From an uncultured delta proteobacterium (GTDB taxonomy: Bacteria; Desulfobacterota; Syntrophia; Syntrophales; Smithellaceae), in contig CAVQCU010000212.1 in assembly GCA_963710995.1 (NCBI GenBank), positions 32,084 to 96,083 on the forward strand: a stretch of DNA of 64,000 bases. Direction: 5' to 3'. Position 1 is the stretch's first letter; each line of letters begins with the position of its first letter. The translations under genes were made by a program, and so were the position numbers. Below are positions 3,858 to 42,318 of the stretch, piece after piece. Under the pieces are notes generated by a model. It searched no databases. It had not been told where the DNA came from and saw nothing but the letters and a program-made list of their open reading frames with translations.

Positions 3858-4895
3858 TTATACTTTTAGCGCTTCTTCGACAATCGAATATATATCGATG
3901 TTGACCGGACAAGAACGCGTGCAGCGTCCACAGCCAACACAAGAAATTACGCCGTATTTTTTCACATGATATGAATATTTGTGATTTATCTTCTGCCTTA
4001 ACCTCTGATAAACCTGTGTTCTGGGATTATGGCCGCTTGCTTCCAGTGTGAAATCGGTAAACATACAGGCATCCCACACTCTGCGTCTCGTTCCTTTGCC
4101 AAACATCGTATCATCACAAATGTCAAAGCAATAGCAGTTCGGACAGACAAACGTGCAAGTGCCACAGCTCAGGCACGCTGATGAAACTTTTGTCCAGAAA
4201 TCGTTGTTATTAAAAATGGCTTCCAGTTTCTTGGCAATGACATCCTGATCGATGCACAGGAAACGAGTTTTATATTCTTTACCCTTCTTAAGAGTTTCTT
4301 CATAATACTTCTCATCATCCGCTCCCGCATCAACAAGAGTACTCAGCTGGGCAAGAAGTTTCTCTCCCTTGGGGGTAATGCTTTTGAGCAGTAAATCTTT
4401 ATCTTTCTTCACCATAAAGATATCGCTGCCTTCCGGATCGGCGGCGTAAATTCCCAGCGAATTATAAAAATCGGCTGAATCAACAGGCTGATTCAAATCG
4501 TAGGCATAACCGAAAATGGTTGTTGCTTTTCTTCTTTGACTCCAATAGGGATCAACAATTCCCGCACCATTAAAGTGAATATCCATGATAGAGAAACTCT
4601 TGACATCGCAGGGACGTACGCCAAACAGAAACACGGGTTTGGAATCCACCTTTATCTGTTCGGCTTCCGACACTGGCTTGCCTACCTTATATTTAATATA
4701 ATCTTCCTTATGGGGAAAAAATGCTCCCTTCGGACTTATGATGGTATTGTAGAAATTCAGATCAACTTTTTGCGGATCTTTAATCTCTGCAAAGTTATGA
4801 CCGGGAACTTCTTTGACGGGGGCAAGAAGTGATCCCTTTCCCATCAACACCGCAGCCAGTTCGGATATTTTTTCTATTGCTGTTTTCTTCAACAC
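3858..4895 (-). CDS. FlxB-like 4Fe-4S dicluster protein (HydB/AsrA-like)
   Basis: CLSCGTCTFVCPNC and CVGCGRCTRSCP ferredoxin motifs. Confidence 0.75.
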   Translation of the reverse strand: MLKKTAIEKISELAAVLMGKGSLLAPVKEVPGHNFAEIKDPQKVDLNFYNTIISPKGAFFPHKEDYIKYKVGKPVSEAEQIKVDSKPVFLFGVRPCDVKSFSIMDIHFNGAGIVDPYWSQRRKATTIFGYAYDLNQPVDSADFYNSLGIYAADPEGSDIFMVKKDKDLLLKSITPKGEKLLAQLSTLVDAGADDEKYYEETLKKGKEYKTRFLCIDQDVIAKKLEAIFNNNDFWTKVSSACLSCGTCTFVCPNCYCFDICDDTMFGKGTRRRVWDACMFTDFTLEASGHNPRTQVYQRLRQKINHKYSYHVKKYGVISCVGCGRCTRSCPVNIDIYSIVEEALKV

Positions 4896-4905
4896 AAACC
4901 GCTCC

Positions 4906-5781
4906 TTACTCCAAAATTTTATCTGAATCTTCGACTCGGAAATTTACCAGCACGGGCTTGTCTTCTATGCTCATGCCGGACACCTGGTTAAACATTTCCT
5001 CGCACTCCTTGGCCACCTTTTTATGGAAAAGATACAAAGGAATATCCACCGGGCAAGCGCGTGAACACTCGCCGCAGTCGATACAGCGTCCTGCCAGATG
5101 ATGAAAACGTGTCAGATGATACATTATATTACCTGGAGACTGCGGCGCCTTGTCCGCCCATTTGGGCTTGTTCTGGTCAATAAAACAGGGATCACAATAA
5201 CACATCGGACAGGCTTTACGACACGCATAACAACGAATACATTTATCAAATTGATCCTTCCAGAATTGCCAGCGAGCGTCTTTGTCCATTGCTTCATACT
5301 CGGCCAGGACATCGTAGGGCGAAACAATCTTCTGTCCATGTACCTCTTCACCCAGTAAAACATCGTACAAAACAGGATTATGCATGCCGCATGTGGTCTT
5401 GCTGTCAATCACTTCGTCTGTTTTGGGATTTTTCATCCCGATGACGGGAATTCCCAGCAGCACCAGATTTTCTTTCTTGACTTTTTCTTCCTGAATTAAC
5501 TGAATGACCGCACGGCTGTCGGCTGCCTTAACGGCGATAGCAATTTTTGTCCCCTGCGGGTAACGAACAAGGTAGCGGGCCATGTTATAATTGCAGTATT
5601 TATTGAATACAATATTATCGACATCCGCAACGCTTTTCGCGGCATAGGGCATCGGATGCTTTTCATCGAAGCCTTTTCCATAAGCCAGTACCACGGTCAC
5701 TTCGCCGGACTCCAACAACCTTTTTGCTTCCTTCTTTAAATTTTCTTCGATTTTTTTAAAATCAGTCATATTTTCTCCCAA
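4906..5781 (-). CDS. FlxC-like 4Fe-4S dicluster protein
   Basis: CIRCYACRKACPMC and CIDCGECSRACP motifs. Sits between the MvhD-like and FlxB-like genes. Confidence 0.7.
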   Translation of the reverse strand: MGENMTDFKKIEENLKKEAKRLLESGEVTVVLAYGKGFDEKHPMPYAAKSVADVDNIVFNKYCNYNMARYLVRYPQGTKIAIAVKAADSRAVIQLIQEEKVKKENLVLLGIPVIGMKNPKTDEVIDSKTTCGMHNPVLYDVLLGEEVHGQKIVSPYDVLAEYEAMDKDARWQFWKDQFDKCIRCYACRKACPMCYCDPCFIDQNKPKWADKAPQSPGNIMYHLTRFHHLAGRCIDCGECSRACPVDIPLYLFHKKVAKECEEMFNQVSGMSIEDKPVLVNFRVEDSDKILE

Positions 5782-5783
5782 CC

Positions 5784-6200
5784 CTACTCTTGGATCTTCA
5801 ACTTCGTCTGGGGGCCAAGATTCTTAACTTGAGTTGTAAACTCCTCAACTACTTCGGCAAATCTATTGCCTTCGGAAGCGGAGATCCATTCCACGCGGAA
5901 TCTTCCCGGTTCAATTCCTGCAAATTCCAGAATCTTTTTAGTCGTGGCAAGCCTTCTTCTAGCATAGAGATTTCCGGTATTATAATGGCAATCGCCGGGA
6001 TGGCAACCGCCAACCAAAACTCCATCCGCACCCAACTGAAGAGCTCTAAATATAAAGGAAGGATTGATGCGGCTTGAGCACATAACCCGGACAACCCGGA
6101 CATTCTGCGGATACTGCAATCTGGTGGTGCCGGCAAGATCCGCCCCTGTATATGTACACCAGTTGCAGGCTATACCCAATATTTTTGGTTCAAATGACAT
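5784..6200 (-). CDS. MvhD/FlxD-like protein (methyl-viologen-reducing hydrogenase delta subunit family)
   Basis: CNWCTY..CSSR..GCHPGDCHY pattern typical of MvhD. Directly downstream of hdrA. Confidence 0.85.
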   Translation of the reverse strand: MSFEPKILGIACNWCTYTGADLAGTTRLQYPQNVRVVRVMCSSRINPSFIFRALQLGADGVLVGGCHPGDCHYNTGNLYARRRLATTKKILEFAGIEPGRFRVEWISASEGNRFAEVVEEFTTQVKNLGPQTKLKIQE

Positions 6201-20800: not shown

Positions 20801-20816
20801 AACAATAACAGGCACT

Positions 20817-21189
20817 GGAGAAGATCATAAGCCGAGTCTTGTCCCGCGTTTCGGTTACCCTACATGTGGTGATGATCATTCATCTGGGACAGCAGTTACC
20901 TGCAGCCTCTAGCGACACTACCCGAGAACATCAGGCGGGCCACCTTTAAACGTTCTCCTATTTGGTCTTGCTCCGGATGGGGTTTACCATGCCTTTCCTG
21001 TCGCCAGGAAAGCGGTGAGCTCTTACCTCGCCTTTTCACCCTTACTCAAGGCTTTCGCCCTGGGCGGTATGTTTTCTGTGGCACTTTCCTTAGGGTCGCC
21101 CCCAGTCGCCGTTAGCGACCATCCTGCCCTGTGGAGCTCGGACTTTCCTCCGGCAGATAAATTCTGCCGACGATCATCTGATCTTCTCC
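20817..21189 (-). ncRNA. rnpB: RNase P RNA, bacterial type A
   Basis: The reverse strand has GGAGGAAAGTCCGAGCTCCACAGGGCAGG, AGGGTGAAAAGGCGAGGTAAGAGCTCACC, ACAAGACTCGGCTTATGATC and a P1 pairing GGAGAAGATCA/TGATCTTCTCC. Confidence 0.93.
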
Positions 21190-30802: not shown

Positions 30803-31549
30803 TTATTTTTCTTCCAGCCCTTCAATAAACGCCAGGACATTTTTACCCAGAACGCTGTGGTTGTAGCCCCCTTCTAAAATGCCGAAGCAGCCGCCTTTGT
30901 TGCGCCAGGCTGCATCTCGCACCAGCTTGCCCATATATTTGTAGTCTTCGGTTTTCAAAAGGCCGCCCCAATCGGCTTCATGATTATCAAATCCGGCCGA
31001 TACGGCGATCATATCAGCCTTTGTTTGCGCTAAATCATTCTGCACATTTTTCAAATATTCATTACGATTAGATGATGTAGGATTAAGTATGGTCACATAT
31101 CCCTTGCCGCCCAGGATATTCACATTGCCGTCACCGAAATGCAGATCGAAATCCAGAATGAATGCTTTTTTAATTTTATCCTCACACTTTAGTTTTTCCA
31201 ACGCTATCGCCATATTGTTAAAATAGCAAAACCCCCACGCGCTTCCCGCTGAAGCATGGTGGCCGGGCGGACGAATTACAGCAAAGCAAGGATCTGTCAA
31301 TCCGATTTGTATCGCTTTAATCGCGCCGCCGGCGGCGAGCGCCGCAATGTCGTATACGCCTTCACGTTCGACCGACTTTACATGCTCGGCAGTGTGTACT
31401 CGGAGAATATCTTCTTGGGAAGCCGGAAGAGGTGTGACAAAATTTACCTTGCCGCGCAGTGCCATTTCAATGGCTTGAATTCTTCCGGCAGCGGAAGCGG
31501 GATCAGACGAATAAATTTCGTTATAATCTTCATGATAAACAACCTTCAT
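30803..31549 (-). CDS. Histone-deacetylase-family (HDAC/AcuC-like) deacetylase, short form
   Basis: RPPGHHA, DFDLHFGDG, SAGFD, LEGGY motifs. Confidence 0.85.
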   Translation of the reverse strand: MKVVYHEDYNEIYSSDPASAAGRIQAIEMALRGKVNFVTPLPASQEDILRVHTAEHVKSVEREGVYDIAALAAGGAIKAIQIGLTDPCFAVIRPPGHHASAGSAWGFCYFNNMAIALEKLKCEDKIKKAFILDFDLHFGDGNVNILGGKGYVTILNPTSSNRNEYLKNVQNDLAQTKADMIAVSAGFDNHEADWGGLLKTEDYKYMGKLVRDAAWRNKGGCFGILEGGYNHSVLGKNVLAFIEGLEEK

Positions 31550-32324
31550 TTAATCCTCCTTTTCCCAGTTTAAAGGAAAATCGGCTGGTAACCCACGGTT
31601 CAGGGTTTCCATCAAAAACTTTTTCCACGAATTTTACGCGATTATTTTTTCCTATAAGCAAAATTGTCGAAGAACGGGTGCCGTAAACAGGGCTAGTAAT
31701 AAATATAGACGACAATACCCGCTCCCATTCCAAGCCTATGCCTGTTGCGGGCAGTTTACTGTCCGGCGGAATGTGACGATCAGCCAGCAGGGCAAACAAC
31801 GCTTCTTCAAGATCGGCGCCTTTTTTATCCAACGCGGCCTTCAAGAGCCTCTTACCCCTTGATACTTTTGGCCAAGGCGTATTCAGGAAATGATTGCTTA
31901 AGCCATAGATTCCGGATTTTAGTTTTTGTTTTTCTCCGCGATTGGAAAAAACAAAAAGTTCACTGCCCTCCCCCAGGATCAAATTAAAGCCATTGTATTT
32001 ATCTGCCTGCGGGGAAATCTCTTCCAGATAATGACTTGGGTTTTGTTTTCCGGAAATGTAACGGCTGACAAGCCCTCCGCGCGAAAGAGCATTACTTTTT
32101 AAAGCGGAAGGATCGCGATAATTAGTGATGGCGGCAAATTTCCCCTCTCTGGTAAAGCCCAGCCACGTACCGCCTTCTTTTAAGTCTCGTCCGGCAAGCA
32201 CTTGTGGTTGATCCTCCCAAAAGTCCGCCGGGGCCGATGGCCGCTCATAAAATTCATCGCGGTTAGCCGCGAGAATTAACCGGCATGATGGATGAACATC
32301 ATAAGCGAATACTATCAGGCACAT
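31530..32324 (-). CDS. NRDE-family (TANGO2-like) protein
   Basis: N-terminal MCLIVFAY..., NRDE motif (LAANRDEFYERPS). Confidence 0.8.
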   Translation of the reverse strand: MCLIVFAYDVHPSCRLILAANRDEFYERPSAPADFWEDQPQVLAGRDLKEGGTWLGFTREGKFAAITNYRDPSALKSNALSRGGLVSRYISGKQNPSHYLEEISPQADKYNGFNLILGEGSELFVFSNRGEKQKLKSGIYGLSNHFLNTPWPKVSRGKRLLKAALDKKGADLEEALFALLADRHIPPDSKLPATGIGLEWERVLSSIFITSPVYGTRSSTILLIGKNNRVKFVEKVFDGNPEPWVTSRFSFKLGKGGLNEGCLS

Positions 32325-32364
32325 TATCTTTTATCCAATAAACCGAAATCATTCAGAAGGTTTT

Positions 32365-33132
32365 TTATTTAATAATTTCCTTCAATCTGGTCATAATTCT
32401 CGTCATTGTTTCTCCCGCCGGAGCGTTTATAAATACATCGGCTATATCATCATGCCCTGTATCTCCCATGTTAATGATAACAATCTTCGCGCCGGAGCGC
32501 TTAGCGTAGAGAGGCATATAAGCGGCGGGATAAACAACCAGTGAAGAACCTATCACAATAAGCAAATCGCATTCTTCGGATTCCCGCTCCGCCGACATCA
32601 AAGTTTCTGGCGGAAGCATTTCACCAAAAAATACAACATCAGGTTTCAGAATACCTTGGCATTTTTCACATACCGGAAAATGATCAGGTGATGGATGTTT
32701 TTGCCTCATCAGTTCTAAATCATAACGCTCACCGCAATCGAGGCAAACCAGCCATTCCATATTGCCGTGCAGTTCATGAACTTTTTTCGGATTATTACCG
32801 GCTCTTTGATGCAGGTTATCAATGTTCTGCGTAATGACCGAACTTAATTTGTTCATTTTTTCCAGTTCGGCTATCGCCAAATGAGCCTGATTGGGATTGG
32901 CCTTAGTCATCAATCCGCCTTCCACAAGGTAATACCAAACTTTTGTGCGTGTCTCGCCGGAACGCAGAAATCTGTCAATCGTGAAATCTTCGGGATCAAC
33001 TTTGGTCCAGAGCCCGGCCGGCCCACGGAAATCAGGAATGCCGGATTCCGTGCTGATGCCGGCTCCGGTAAAAATAACTAGTTTTTTCGAAGCCGCTATC
33101 ATTTCCGCAGTCTTATTTATTTTTGATTCCAT
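32365..33132 (-). CDS. cobB: NAD-dependent protein deacylase (sirtuin)
   Basis: GAGISTESGIPDFRG, HG..., zinc ribbon CLDCG..CEKCQG. Confidence 0.9.
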   Translation of the reverse strand: MESKINKTAEMIAASKKLVIFTGAGISTESGIPDFRGPAGLWTKVDPEDFTIDRFLRSGETRTKVWYYLVEGGLMTKANPNQAHLAIAELEKMNKLSSVITQNIDNLHQRAGNNPKKVHELHGNMEWLVCLDCGERYDLELMRQKHPSPDHFPVCEKCQGILKPDVVFFGEMLPPETLMSAERESEECDLLIVIGSSLVVYPAAYMPLYAKRSGAKIVIINMGDTGHDDIADVFINAPAGETMTRIMTRLKEIIK

Positions 33133-40531: not shown

Positions 40532-40556
40532 ATATTCACTCCGCTAATTTATTGTT

Positions 40557-40663
40557 GAAACTCCAATTCCGAAAGCGCAGCGCAACGGAATTGGTAAGTT
40601 GAACAATCCCGCAAAGCGGAGGGTATAATACCCCGCAGCTTGCTTTGGGGTATTATACCCGTG
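40557..40663 (+). repeat. Hairpin-module array E (minimal 107-nt version)
   Basis: GAAACTCCAATTCCG-N14-CGGAATTGGTAAGTTGAACAATCCCGC-AAA-GCGGAGGGTATAATACCCC-N12-GGGGTATTATACCCGTG. It overlaps the last 3 codons and the stop of aroF. Confidence 0.88.
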
Positions 40664-41672
40664 AATGTCTCATCGCCGCGGCGATTGCCTTTAATTCGTC
40701 CATCAATTGATAAAACTTCTCCGGTTTCAGAGACTGCGCTCCATCGGAGACGGCTTTTTCCGGTTCCGGATGAACTTCCACGATAAGACCATCAGCGCCA
40801 ACAGCAACCGCGGCACGGGACAGCGGAATTACATATTTCCAATGACCGGCAGCATGACTGGGATCGACAATAACCGGCAGATGCGTCAAACCCTTCAACA
40901 CCGGAACAGCGCTTAAATCCAGAGTGTTTCTTGTGGCCGTTTCAAACGTCCTGATGCCGCGTTCGCATAGAATAACATTAGGGTTACCTGAAGAAAGAAT
41001 ATATTCCGCCGACATGAGTAACTCTTCGATGGTGGTCATCATCCCTCTTTTTAAAAGCACCGGCTTTTTCGAACGACCGACTTCTTTGAGCAGGGCAAAA
41101 TTCTGGGTATTGCGCGCGCCGATTTGCAGCATGTCGGCATAAGATTCCACAAGATCAACATCAGCGGGATTGACCACTTCAGTGACCGTCGGCAGACCCG
41201 TTCTCACACTAACCTGATTTAATACTTTCAAGCCTTCTTCTTCCATACCCTGGAAGCTGTATGGCGAAGTGCGCGGTTTGTAGGCGCCGCCTCTAAGAAT
41301 CTGGGCACCGCCCTTTTTGGCGACATAGGCGGACTCTAGTAATTGCTCTTCGCTTTCAATCGCACAGGGACCGGCTATTACCACGAATTCCGGGCCGCCG
41401 ATTTTAATCAGACCTACGGAAACCACGGTATTACCTTCGTGCGATTCACGACTTGCCAACTTGTATGGTTTTAAAATCGGCATGGTTTTTTCTACCCCCG
41501 GCAAGGATTCCGCGTATTTAAGGATCCCCTTGTCGCGATTGTCACCGACTGCCCCGATAATTGTCCGTTCAACACCGATTGAAGGATGCGCTTTGTATCC
41601 GACAGATTCAATCCAGTGAATCACATCTTCAATTTGCTTTTCTGTAGCTTGATTCTTCATTACAATGATCAT
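40653..41672 (-). CDS. aroF: 3-deoxy-7-phosphoheptulonate (DAHP) synthase, class I-beta with N-terminal regulatory domain
   Basis: KDO8PS-like core ([25 protein letters not shown]) after a ~70-aa ferredoxin-like N-terminal domain. Confidence 0.9.
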
Positions 41673-41692
41673 GATTTTCCCCTCCTGAAATT

Positions 41693-41768
41693 AAAAAAGG
41701 CCATGACTTTTGCCGCCATGGCCTTAAAAAAGAAAAGCCATGGGAGCTCTTTCGATCTACCCATGGCT
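41693..41768 (-). terminator. Two tandem intrinsic-terminator-like hairpins in the aro leader (attenuator candidate)
   Basis: Minus strand: AGCCATGGG-N14-TCCCATGGCT+TTTCTTTTTT, then AAGGCCATG-N11-CATGGCCTT+TTTT. All four arms share a CCATGG core, which allows alternative pairings. Confidence 0.6.
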
Positions 41769-41786
41769 GTTTTGGTTTATTCAACC

Positions 41787-41885
41787 TTAACAAGTCCTCC
41801 TCAGCGACGGGCAGACCAATGCAAAATAGGTATAAAACCAATAACCATAAATATTGTTGTTTGCAGTCAGTTTTCTGTCCATCAT
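41787..41885 (-). CDS. Candidate aro-operon leader peptide MMDRKLTANNNIYGYWFYTYFALVCPSLRRTC
   Basis: 7 aromatic residues in a 9-residue run (Y,Y,W,F,Y,Y,F). It lies between a consensus-like promoter and the tandem terminators, with a GAGGA SD ~10 nt upstream. Confidence 0.55.
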   Translation of the reverse strand: MMDRKLTANNNIYGYWFYTYFALVCPSLRRTC

Positions 41886-41911
41886 GAAAAACCTGTCCTC
41901 TATTGGAATGT

Positions 41912-41940
41912 TATATAATCAAACTAAAAATATTTGTCAA
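41912..41940 (-). promoter_or_regulatory. Sigma-70-type promoter of the aro operon (TTGACA-17-TATATA)
   Basis: Minus strand TTGACA (41940-41935), 17-nt spacer, TATATA (41917-41912). Confidence 0.6.
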
Positions 41941-41958
41941 GAGAAAATTTAAAGAGCG

Positions 41959-42318
41959 TTAATTTAAAAGAATGCGCTTTTTCTTAAAAATATTCTTCAG
42001 CGATGGACGACCCGAAAATGTGCGCACCAAGTTGCGTATGACGAGCGCGCCGGTCGAATGTACGATCACGTTGAACCCGCTTATCAGAATCTGCTGGTGG
42101 TCTCTTTTTAACGCGCGATCCAGGGCGTGCGAAATATCGTCGATCGTAAGCCCGTCTTCCAACGAAATGTAACGCGAGACATCAATCTCAATGACATTCG
42201 CGGAACCGTAGTTTTCTCGTAGAGCATCCGGAAATGTTCCGTAAATATTTCGCACCGCTTCCGGAGTGGTTTCACTGCTCTCGGCGCTATATCCGTGGAT
42301 GAGAACAATCGGTTCCAT
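41959..42318 (-). pseudogene. Truncated lipase/esterase-like alpha/beta hydrolase remnant
   Basis: N-terminal IVLIHGY and nucleophile elbow HSTGA are present. The ORF stops ~15 aa later, with no continuation in other frames. Confidence 0.4.

Follow-up and report, generated by a model that had tools for sequence, protein, structure and literature searches.

A conserved aromatic-codon leader with tandem terminators as the probable transcription attenuator of an aro/phe/tyr supraoperon in Syntrophales

The 64-kb stretch of DNA analysed here (contig CAVQCU010000212.1, positions 32,084 to 96,083, from an uncultured delta proteobacterium of the Smithellaceae; hereafter the window, to whose positions all coordinates refer) carries on its minus strand a short aromatic-rich leader and two tandem terminator hairpins directly ahead of the operon aroF-aroB-pheA-aroDE-aroA-aroK-aroC-tyrA. 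We conclude that this operon is very probably controlled by a ribosome-mediated (leader-peptide) transcription attenuator. The leader open reading frame (ORF), its run of aromatic codons, the terminators T1 and T2, the alternative RNA helices named 1:2 and 2:3 after the segments that they join, and a fixed placement of the last aromatic codon relative to segment 2 all exist and are conserved, and the leader has every computationally testable feature that defines a classical leader-peptide attenuator. In the order in which they would be transcribed, the elements of the locus are the following.

41912-41940, minus strand: putative sigma-70-type promoter (TTGACA 41940-41935, 17-nt spacer, TATATA 41917-41912)
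41896-41900, minus strand: Shine-Dalgarno (SD)-like GAGGA of the leader ORF, 10 nt 5' of the first ATG and 13 nt 5' of the conserved second ATG
41787-41885, minus strand: leader ORF of 32 codons (ATG 41885, TAA 41789-41787), encoding MMDRKLTANNNIYGYWFYTYFALVCPSLRRTC
41874-41883, minus strand: segment 1a, GAUGGACAGA, the leader start codon and two codons, predicted to pair with segment 2 in the 1:2 anti-antiterminator
41859-41870, minus strand: segment 1b, CUGACUGCAAAC, predicted 5' strand of the inner 1:2 helix, with partner UUUGCAUUGG at 41825-41816
41823-41849, minus strand: regulatory codon run, TAT GGT TAT TGG TTT TAT ACC TAT TTT (Y G Y W F Y T Y F)
41803-41817, minus strand: segment 2, GGUCUGCCCGUCGCU, coding for VCPSL; predicted 5' strand of the antiterminator, with segment 1 as alternative partner
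41754-41768, minus strand: segment 3, AGCCAUGGGUAGAUC, 5' arm of T1 and predicted 3' strand of the antiterminator
41726-41749, minus strand: segment 4, GAGCUCCCAUGGCU, 3' arm of T1, with U-run UUUCUUUUUU
41715-41725, minus strand: segment 5, AAGGCCAUGGC, 5' arm of T2, with a possible alternative pairing to segment 4 (CCAUGGCUUU/AAGGCCAUGG)
41693-41706, minus strand: segment 6, UCAUGGCCUU, 3' arm of T2, with U-run
41679-41686, minus strand: SD of aroF, AGGAGGGG, read from the sequence and the aligned relatives

An initial annotation of the window had proposed the TTGACA-17-TATATA promoter, a 32-codon ORF with seven Tyr/Trp/Phe codons in nine (seven of the nine residues of YGYWFYTYF), two hairpins each followed by a T-run, and the SD and ATG (41672) of aroF, and all of these can be read at the positions given above. 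Across 76 relatives (alignment A1, described below), CTTGACAA is kept as the -35 box and a TATA-type motif as the -10; a consensus promoter scan did not list the promoter because its TATATA -10 hexamer lacks the consensus final T. An A/GAGGA motif is found in most of the same relatives, and the conserved leader start is the second ATG (41882), from which the ORF has 31 codons. A leader ORF with its own SD-like motif therefore lies directly upstream of an amino-acid biosynthetic operon and is itself preceded by a conserved promoter. T1 spans 41768-41726 (AGCCAUGGG...CCCAUGGCU, then UUUCUUUUUU; -18.8 kcal/mol) and T2 spans 41725-41693 (AAGGCCAUGGC...UCAUGGCCUU, then UUUU; -18.1 kcal/mol); the second was also picked up by a terminator scan, and the leader region has a folding z-score of -4.0 against dinucleotide shuffles. 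The four terminator arms had been said to contain CCATGG throughout. Three of them do (41761-41766, 41738-41743 and 41716-41721); the fourth reads TCATGG, which gives a G.U pair in this window, and most relatives carry CCATGG there. The three sites fall within 51 nt, as against 19 sites in the whole 64 kb. The gap between T2 and the aroF ATG is about 25 nt and leaves no space for a promoter; read-through therefore has to pass both terminators.

The eight genes downstream, whose assignment to aromatic biosynthesis had been made from the letters and translations alone, are each assigned the same function by NCBIfam, with matches above cut-off for the seven genes that follow aroF. Within the operon, no strong terminator-like site was found above chance level.

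40653-41672, minus strand: aroF, 3-deoxy-7-phosphoheptulonate (DAHP) synthase with an N-terminal ferredoxin-like domain (NF006421, 513 bits; Pfam DAHP_snth_FXD and DAHP_synth_1)
40531-39437, minus strand: aroB, 3-dehydroquinate synthase
39440-38358, minus strand: pheA, chorismate mutase/prephenate dehydratase (CM-PDT)
38361-36784, minus strand: aroDE, fused dehydroquinase/shikimate dehydrogenase
36791-35535, minus strand: aroA, EPSP synthase
35559-34987, minus strand: aroK, shikimate kinase
34974-33901, minus strand: aroC, chorismate synthase
33964-33113, minus strand: tyrA, prephenate dehydrogenase

The DAHP synthase is 95% identical to the Smithella sp. SCADC protein, and the 80 best genome matches to it (75-95% identity) served as relatives; all belong to Smithella, Smithellaceae, Syntrophaceae or Syntrophus, or are unclassified "Deltaproteobacteria"/Thermodesulfobacteriota metagenome-assembled genomes (MAGs). 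In essentially every one of these 80 loci with sufficient upstream DNA, a homologous aromatic-rich ORF lies 5' of aroF; its product has the form M(D/N)R..., 6-10 aromatic residues, ...VC(P/L)SLRR..., and the ORF ends about 110-130 nt 5' of aroF. Conservation of the small ORF and of its aromatic run upstream of aroF orthologues had been set beforehand as a refuting test, and both turned out to be conserved across Syntrophales. Their occurrence by chance is rare, since about 9 of some 14,000 small ORFs in the related loci, the leader excluded, have at least 7 aromatics per 10. Two more aromatic-rich small ORFs of the window (~21423 and ~24323, minus strand) were dismissed as chance, since each is contained in a larger ORF or runs antisense to one. 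The leader was also sought in metagenomes with a DNA pattern of the conserved RNA core, which gave 120 matches. The aromatic run is present in 32 of them, and all 32 are followed by aroF, and then by aroB and pheA where the contig allows, with aroF identity down to ~67% (one cut or frameshifted copy stands at 38%). The other 88 matches lack the run and were rejected as chance; 87 of these lack aroF as well. One match rejected as chance, L191, lies upstream of a distant aroF (54% identity) and its leader is unrelated and non-aromatic. The first 520 nt of L191 (reverse strand), from a high-GC organism, hold a TTGACA promoter, a non-aromatic small ORF and a strong terminator.

Some relatives depart from the common arrangement between leader and aroF. 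In three Smithella-type genomes (L024, ~4780-6000; L027, 1527-2749; L047, ~4785-6000), a gene of about 320 aa for an HMGL-like (PF00682) aldolase-family protein separates aroF from the leader and its terminators, an insertion that would therefore place the gene under control of the same leader. L005 and L060 have ~100-150 extra nt between T2 and aroF, so that aroF begins 218 and 273 nt, respectively, after the leader stop, against ~115 nt.

The leader bears a signature at the level of codons. All 76 aligned leaders have 6-10 aromatic residues per 12, with means of 3.9 Y, 2.8 F and 1.0 W, and Phe, Trp and Tyr occur together in 71 of them, which makes the proposed sensing of all three aromatic tRNAs plausible. 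Positions of the run swap among Y, F and W (codon counts: TAT 243, TTT 177, TGG 77, TAC 56, TTC 33), a free interchange that reads as the mark of codon-level sensing, and the frame from the ATG through the run is intact in every relative. Translation likely matters up to and through the run, because codon identity is kept there despite nucleotide changes. The picture changes 3' of it. The segment 2 codons GTC TGC CCG TCG have third-position conservation of 0.97, 0.97, 0.61 and 1.00, the second positions of CCG and TCG vary (0.67 and 0.83) through C-to-U transitions that give P/L and S/L changes, and three leaders (L028, L034 and L035) are frame-shifted 3' of the run with the segment 2 nucleotides unchanged; it is therefore RNA, not peptide, that appears to be conserved 3' of the run.

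This signature bears on two other explanations. A TnaC-like nascent arrest peptide would sense free aromatic amino acids in the exit tunnel, not tRNA charging, and might account for a conserved peptide with a nearly invariant W-F-Y core and a C-terminal VCPSLRR motif. However, F, Y and W swap freely and the number of aromatic residues varies, and the C-terminal conservation lies at the RNA level, as the tolerated replacements and the frame-shifted leaders indicate. TnaC-type arrest turns on a catabolic operon in response to an abundant amino acid (PMC8429421). A biosynthetic operon has to be induced on starvation, in keeping with the logic of tRNA charging, and we regard an arrest peptide as very improbable here. 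No better prospects attach to the idea that the small ORF is untranslated and that the region works as a leader bound by protein or tRNA (a T-box, a TRAP-like element or a riboswitch of unknown type), or is no more than a tandem terminator for the upstream gene. The long SD spacing of 13 nt to the conserved ATG would suit it, as would the upstream 119-aa ORF (41959-42318, minus strand), which ends 19 nt before the -35 box with no terminator of its own nearby. Yet a conserved promoter stands between that gene and the leader, the last aromatic codon holds a fixed position relative to segment 2, no Rfam family (T-box, Phe or Trp leader, or any other) reaches E = 0.01 in the region, and only translation explains both the aromatic codon identity kept through nucleotide changes and the intact frame in every relative. 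It is likewise highly unlikely that the ORF goes untranslated. The 119-aa ORF itself has only a weak, sub-threshold match to Palm_thioest (alpha/beta-hydrolase-like).

For the attenuator, the initial annotation had warned that the 19 nt between the leader stop and T1 left the coupling of ribosome and terminator unclear. An antiterminator that it had overlooked, inside the ORF, settles the geometry: segment 2 (GGUCUGCCCGUCGCU, 41817-41803) can pair along the entire 5' arm of T1 (AGCCAUGGGUAGAUC, 41768-41754), and coupling would depend on this segment and not on the stop codon. In this window the resulting 2:3 hairpin is worth -24 to -26 kcal/mol, as against -18.8 for T1. Across the 76 sequences 94.6% of the alignment cells of the 2:3 helix are paired, with two-sided changes at 5 of 16 pairs and one-sided changes (e.g., G-C to G-U) at 9; T1 itself is 90.8% paired with 5 compensatory pairs and is recovered by RNAalifold. 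When the 3' partners were slid by 1-3 columns as a control, the whole structure of 2:3 plus 4:5 (the latter joining segments 4 and 5, see below) was only 29-50% paired. The median energy of 2:3 is -25.7 kcal/mol and that of T1 -19.6 kcal/mol, and in 65 of the 76 loci 2:3 is the more stable helix.

The position of the ribosome was then modelled by shielding 13 nt ahead of its A-site and treating the RNA upstream of it as unavailable. In this window, the minimum-energy fold passes from T1 to 2:3 only with the A-site on the first six codons of the run (Y-G-Y-W-F-Y). Attenuation is decided before segment 4 is made, and the relatives were therefore compared with a co-transcriptional proxy, folding only to the end of segment 3, in place of equilibrium. 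By this proxy 2:3 forms in all 76 loci while the ribosome leaves segment 2 exposed, up to the arrival of the A-site at the last aromatic codon, and the final permissive A-site coincides with the last aromatic codon or the one before it (0 or -1 codon) in 67 of 76. In the model, a ribosome at the end of the run would just be starting to occlude segment 2, a relation that is kept among the relatives.

The opposing helix, 1:2, belongs to the long hairpin around the aromatic run that the untranslated leader adopts as its minimum-energy fold. The outer part of this hairpin, GAUGGACAGA with UCUGCCCGUCG of segment 2 (columns 80-90/153-163), is 91.3% paired with two-sided changes at 5 of 10 pairs; its inner part, AAUGCAAA with UUUGCAUU, flanks the run (columns 97-107/143-152) and is 73.9% paired with 8 of 10 pairs compensatory. 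The N-terminal M-D-R of the peptide is likely conserved because the start-codon region pairs in this helix. Direct-path refolding barriers were estimated at ~22 kcal/mol from 1:2 to 2:3 and at ~19 kcal/mol from 2:3 to T1; the helix that forms first would therefore be effectively locked on the timescale of transcription, as in the classical model. Just 5' of the leader stop lies an SD-like stretch, GAGGAGGA (41791-41802, minus strand), whose nucleotides are conserved, frame-shifted leaders included, and for which no conserved pairing partner was found; it might keep a terminating ribosome over segment 2, or serve another role at the RNA level.

We propose that the six segments adopt two mutually exclusive sets of helices. 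By default, when aromatic aminoacyl-tRNAs are plentiful or the leader is untranslated, segment 1 would pair with segment 2, or the ribosome would cover segment 2 on its way to the stop codon; segment 3 would then be free to pair with segment 4 as T1, segments 5 and 6 would form T2, and transcription would end before aroF. When charged Tyr-, Phe- or Trp-tRNA is scarce, a ribosome would stall in Y-G-Y-W-F-Y-T-Y-F, breaking 1:2 and leaving segment 2 uncovered to capture the newly transcribed segment 3 (2:3, about -25 kcal/mol), which would block T1. The freed segment 4 could pair with segment 5 before segment 6 is made, thereby delaying T2 and allowing the polymerase to enter aroF.

Several points tell against this proposal and temper our confidence in it. 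Ribosome stalling and its control of read-through are presumed in it, and the spacing of 13 nt between the SD-like motif and the conserved start is long. The model needs the RNA upstream of the stalled ribosome to be unavailable, presumably through steric exclusion or a second ribosome queued on the start region; constrained folding that permits pairing across the stalled ribosome was tried and gave no switch, 1:2 plus T1 staying optimal. At equilibrium, the minimum-energy fold with T1 present gives an antitermination window in just 46 of 76 loci, because T1 is often the more stable helix. In the untranslated leader, before segment 4 exists, equilibrium favours 2:3 over 1:2 in 64 of 76 loci, and 1:2 must therefore act kinetically, by forming first. 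The remaining difficulties all concern the second terminator: T2 remains folded at equilibrium in every modelled ribosome state, and the pairing of segments 4 and 5 falls short of T2 in stability in 73 of 76 loci, lifts the barrier to T2 only from 2.6 to 7.8 kcal/mol, which would slow T2 without blocking it, and has a central mismatch in 13 relatives, while one relative (L061) has no T2. This pairing was also rejected as an independent covariation signal, all arms sharing the palindromic core.

T2 is 97.0% paired with 6 compensatory pairs, is recovered by RNAalifold and is found in 75 of 76 relatives; with a median of -20.5 kcal/mol, it is the stronger of the two hairpins. In the exception, L061, T2 is degenerate (-6 kcal/mol, no U-run) and the leader, segment 2 and T1 are intact, which makes it a natural single-terminator variant. 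The alternative pairing that the initial annotation had called 2:3, between the 3' arm of T1 and the 5' arm of T2, is renamed 4:5 here (CCAUGGCUUU/AAGGCCAUGG). It is indeed possible (-15.0 kcal/mol) and conserved (95.7% paired), and it exceeds an arm-shuffle null in stability in 67 of 76 loci; as a switch it would be secondary. It is the sole candidate in the RNA for a bypass of T2, is available only when 2:3 holds segment 3, and would let the polymerase pass on kinetic grounds only.

These data have to be weighed against the view that T1 attenuates as described and T2 stands outside the switch, as an unregulated leaky dampener or under some other control, the shared CCAUGG core then being a relic of a tandem duplication of T1. 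The persistence of T2 as the minimum-energy structure in all modelled ribosome states, the comparative weakness of 4:5 with its low barrier, its mismatches and two-sided covariation at just 1 of its 10 pairs all favour this view. On the other hand, T2 looks strong (an 11-bp GC-rich stem and 6-7 U) and sits 25 nt before an essential operon with no promoter room, so that some means of bypass would seem to be required; both terminators retain the shared core over deep divergence; 4:5 surpasses its shuffle null in most loci; and in L069 the 5' arm of T2 has changed together with the arms of T1 (CCGUGG/CCACGG), perfect Watson-Crick 4:5 pairing being kept. We take a T2 outside the switch to be a serious contender, its probability a little short of even. 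The chained bypass of T2 through 4:5 is, on the modelling, plausible, with at most an even chance of being right.

More tentatively still, and with a probability that we place clearly below even, the two terminators and their self-complementary CCAUGG core may constitute a purpose-built two-stage "domino" attenuator. If so, a stalled ribosome would set 2:3, and the freed segment 4 would hold segment 5 and disarm T2; a transcript leaking past a formed T1 would have segment 5 free and be caught by T2; and if the ribosome resumed before the polymerase passed T2, 2:3 would melt, 3:4 would re-form and T2 would fire. Only sustained starvation for aromatic aminoacyl-tRNA would then open the operon, amounting to a kinetic proofreading of the stall. 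We know of no described leader-peptide attenuator with two serially coupled terminators.

The overall design has well-known counterparts. Like pheL-pheA and trpL-trpEDCBA of E. coli, the Syntrophales leader combines a run of end-product codons with 1:2, 2:3 and 3:4 helices among which the position of the ribosome would decide. It differs from them in showing no similarity of sequence or structure (no Rfam match at E up to 10), in a segment 1 that takes in the leader's own start codon and in having two terminators instead of one; moreover, pheL and trpL each sense one amino acid for one terminal branch, whereas here a Tyr/Phe/Trp mix would serve the common pathway plus the Phe and Tyr branches. 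The his leader of Salmonella and E. coli, reportedly described by Johnston and colleagues in 1980, is said to have six segments, with A:B, C:D and E:F set against B:C and D:E. The Syntrophales leader resembles it in its six chained segments, along which alternative pairings would relay a change of register from the 5' end to the 3' terminator; in his only E:F terminates, whereas here 3:4 and 5:6 are both hairpins with a U-run, and the relay step 4:5 is a presumed one. Multivalent attenuators are likewise established, in the E. coli ilvGMEDA leader (Ile/Leu/Val codons) and the thr leader (Thr/Ile codons), where, as here, codons for several end products of one pathway are combined in a single peptide; these concern other amino acids and pathways, are unrelated in sequence and have a single terminator.

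The closest precedent lies in Corynebacterium glutamicum, in which the aroR leader peptide precedes the operon of aroF, also a DAHP synthase gene (Neshat et al., 2014, as related in PMC11802643 and PMC7356990). The aroR leader is likewise short, has aromatic codons and lies directly 5' of a DAHP-synthase gene, and ribosome stalling at these codons raises downstream aro transcription; our literature search found no other published case in which a leader peptide controls entry to this common pathway. AroR, as described in PMC11802643, has a Phe-Tyr-Phe motif only and is reported to respond to limitation of Phe, not of Tyr; compared by description only, this contrasts with 6-10 aromatic codons here, Trp almost always included. 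The hosts also differ (Actinomycetota versus Thermodesulfobacteriota), and the element described here would control eight genes, including pheA and tyrA, through two tandem terminators. Given the distance between the phyla, an independent origin of the two leaders is likely.

The novelty suggested by the initial annotation accordingly stands in part: an aromatic leader upstream of a DAHP-synthase operon was already known from aroR, and none was found for this lineage or for a whole aro/phe/tyr supraoperon. A literature search on Deltaproteobacteria, Syntrophales and Syntrophus found no prior description, the survey of attenuators across bacteria by Lopatovskaya, Seliverstov and Lyubetsky (2010; pmid 20198868), which lay outside that search, being a place where delta-proteobacterial cases might be reported; nor did the search find leader-peptide control of a whole aro/phe/tyr supraoperon. 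A scan of 41600-42000 against Rfam at E up to 10 gave no match to any leader family, including Phe_leader (RF01859) and Trp_leader (RF00513), to the T-box (RF00230) or to a riboswitch. The leader peptide has no Pfam or NCBIfam match and, by exact look-up, is not called as a gene in a collection of 15 billion proteins. The Syntrophales leader is thus in no curated leader family; the principle is textbook, and this version of it is newly described.

Other features of the window touch on the operon or its surroundings. The aroF-aroB spacer (40532-40652, minus strand; 121 nt) contains two strong hairpins without U-runs, GGTATAATACCCC...GGGGTATTATACC, which overlaps the aroF stop, and CCAATTCCG...CGGAATTGG; both might serve to stabilise or process the mRNA within the operon. 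Directly 3' of tyrA, on the same strand, 30803-33132 is occupied by overlapping or closely spaced genes, which may be co-transcribed with the aro operon.

33132-32365, minus strand: Sir2/CobB-type NAD-dependent deacylase, 3' of tyrA
32324-31530, minus strand: TANGO2-family protein, 3' of the Sir2/CobB-type gene
31549-30803, minus strand: histone-deacetylase-domain protein, 3' of the TANGO2-family gene

At gathering score, the only Rfam family in the whole window is RNase P, located elsewhere (bacterial RNase P RNA class A, 20813-21189, minus strand; 326.8 bits, full length).

The principle at work will come as no surprise to a specialist, and the value of the finding lies in a new family and in a possible two-stage design. 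Two features deserve attention, namely the joint sensing of Tyr, Phe and Trp proposed for a supraoperon, and the tandem terminators sharing a self-complementary core; with their palindromic core, the latter offer a compact, testable system for the relay of alternative RNA pairings, and tighter synthetic attenuators might be modelled on the architecture of the leader. With more than 100 aligned examples to start from, a new RNA or leader-peptide family could be built, and the annotation of Syntrophales MAGs could improve with it. To our knowledge, almost nothing is known of gene regulation in Syntrophales. The leader described here would extend textbook ribosome-mediated attenuation to these slow-growing, syntrophic and mostly uncultured anaerobes, in which a single leader would govern entry to the whole aromatic pathway, from DAHP synthase to chorismate, together with the Phe and Tyr branches.

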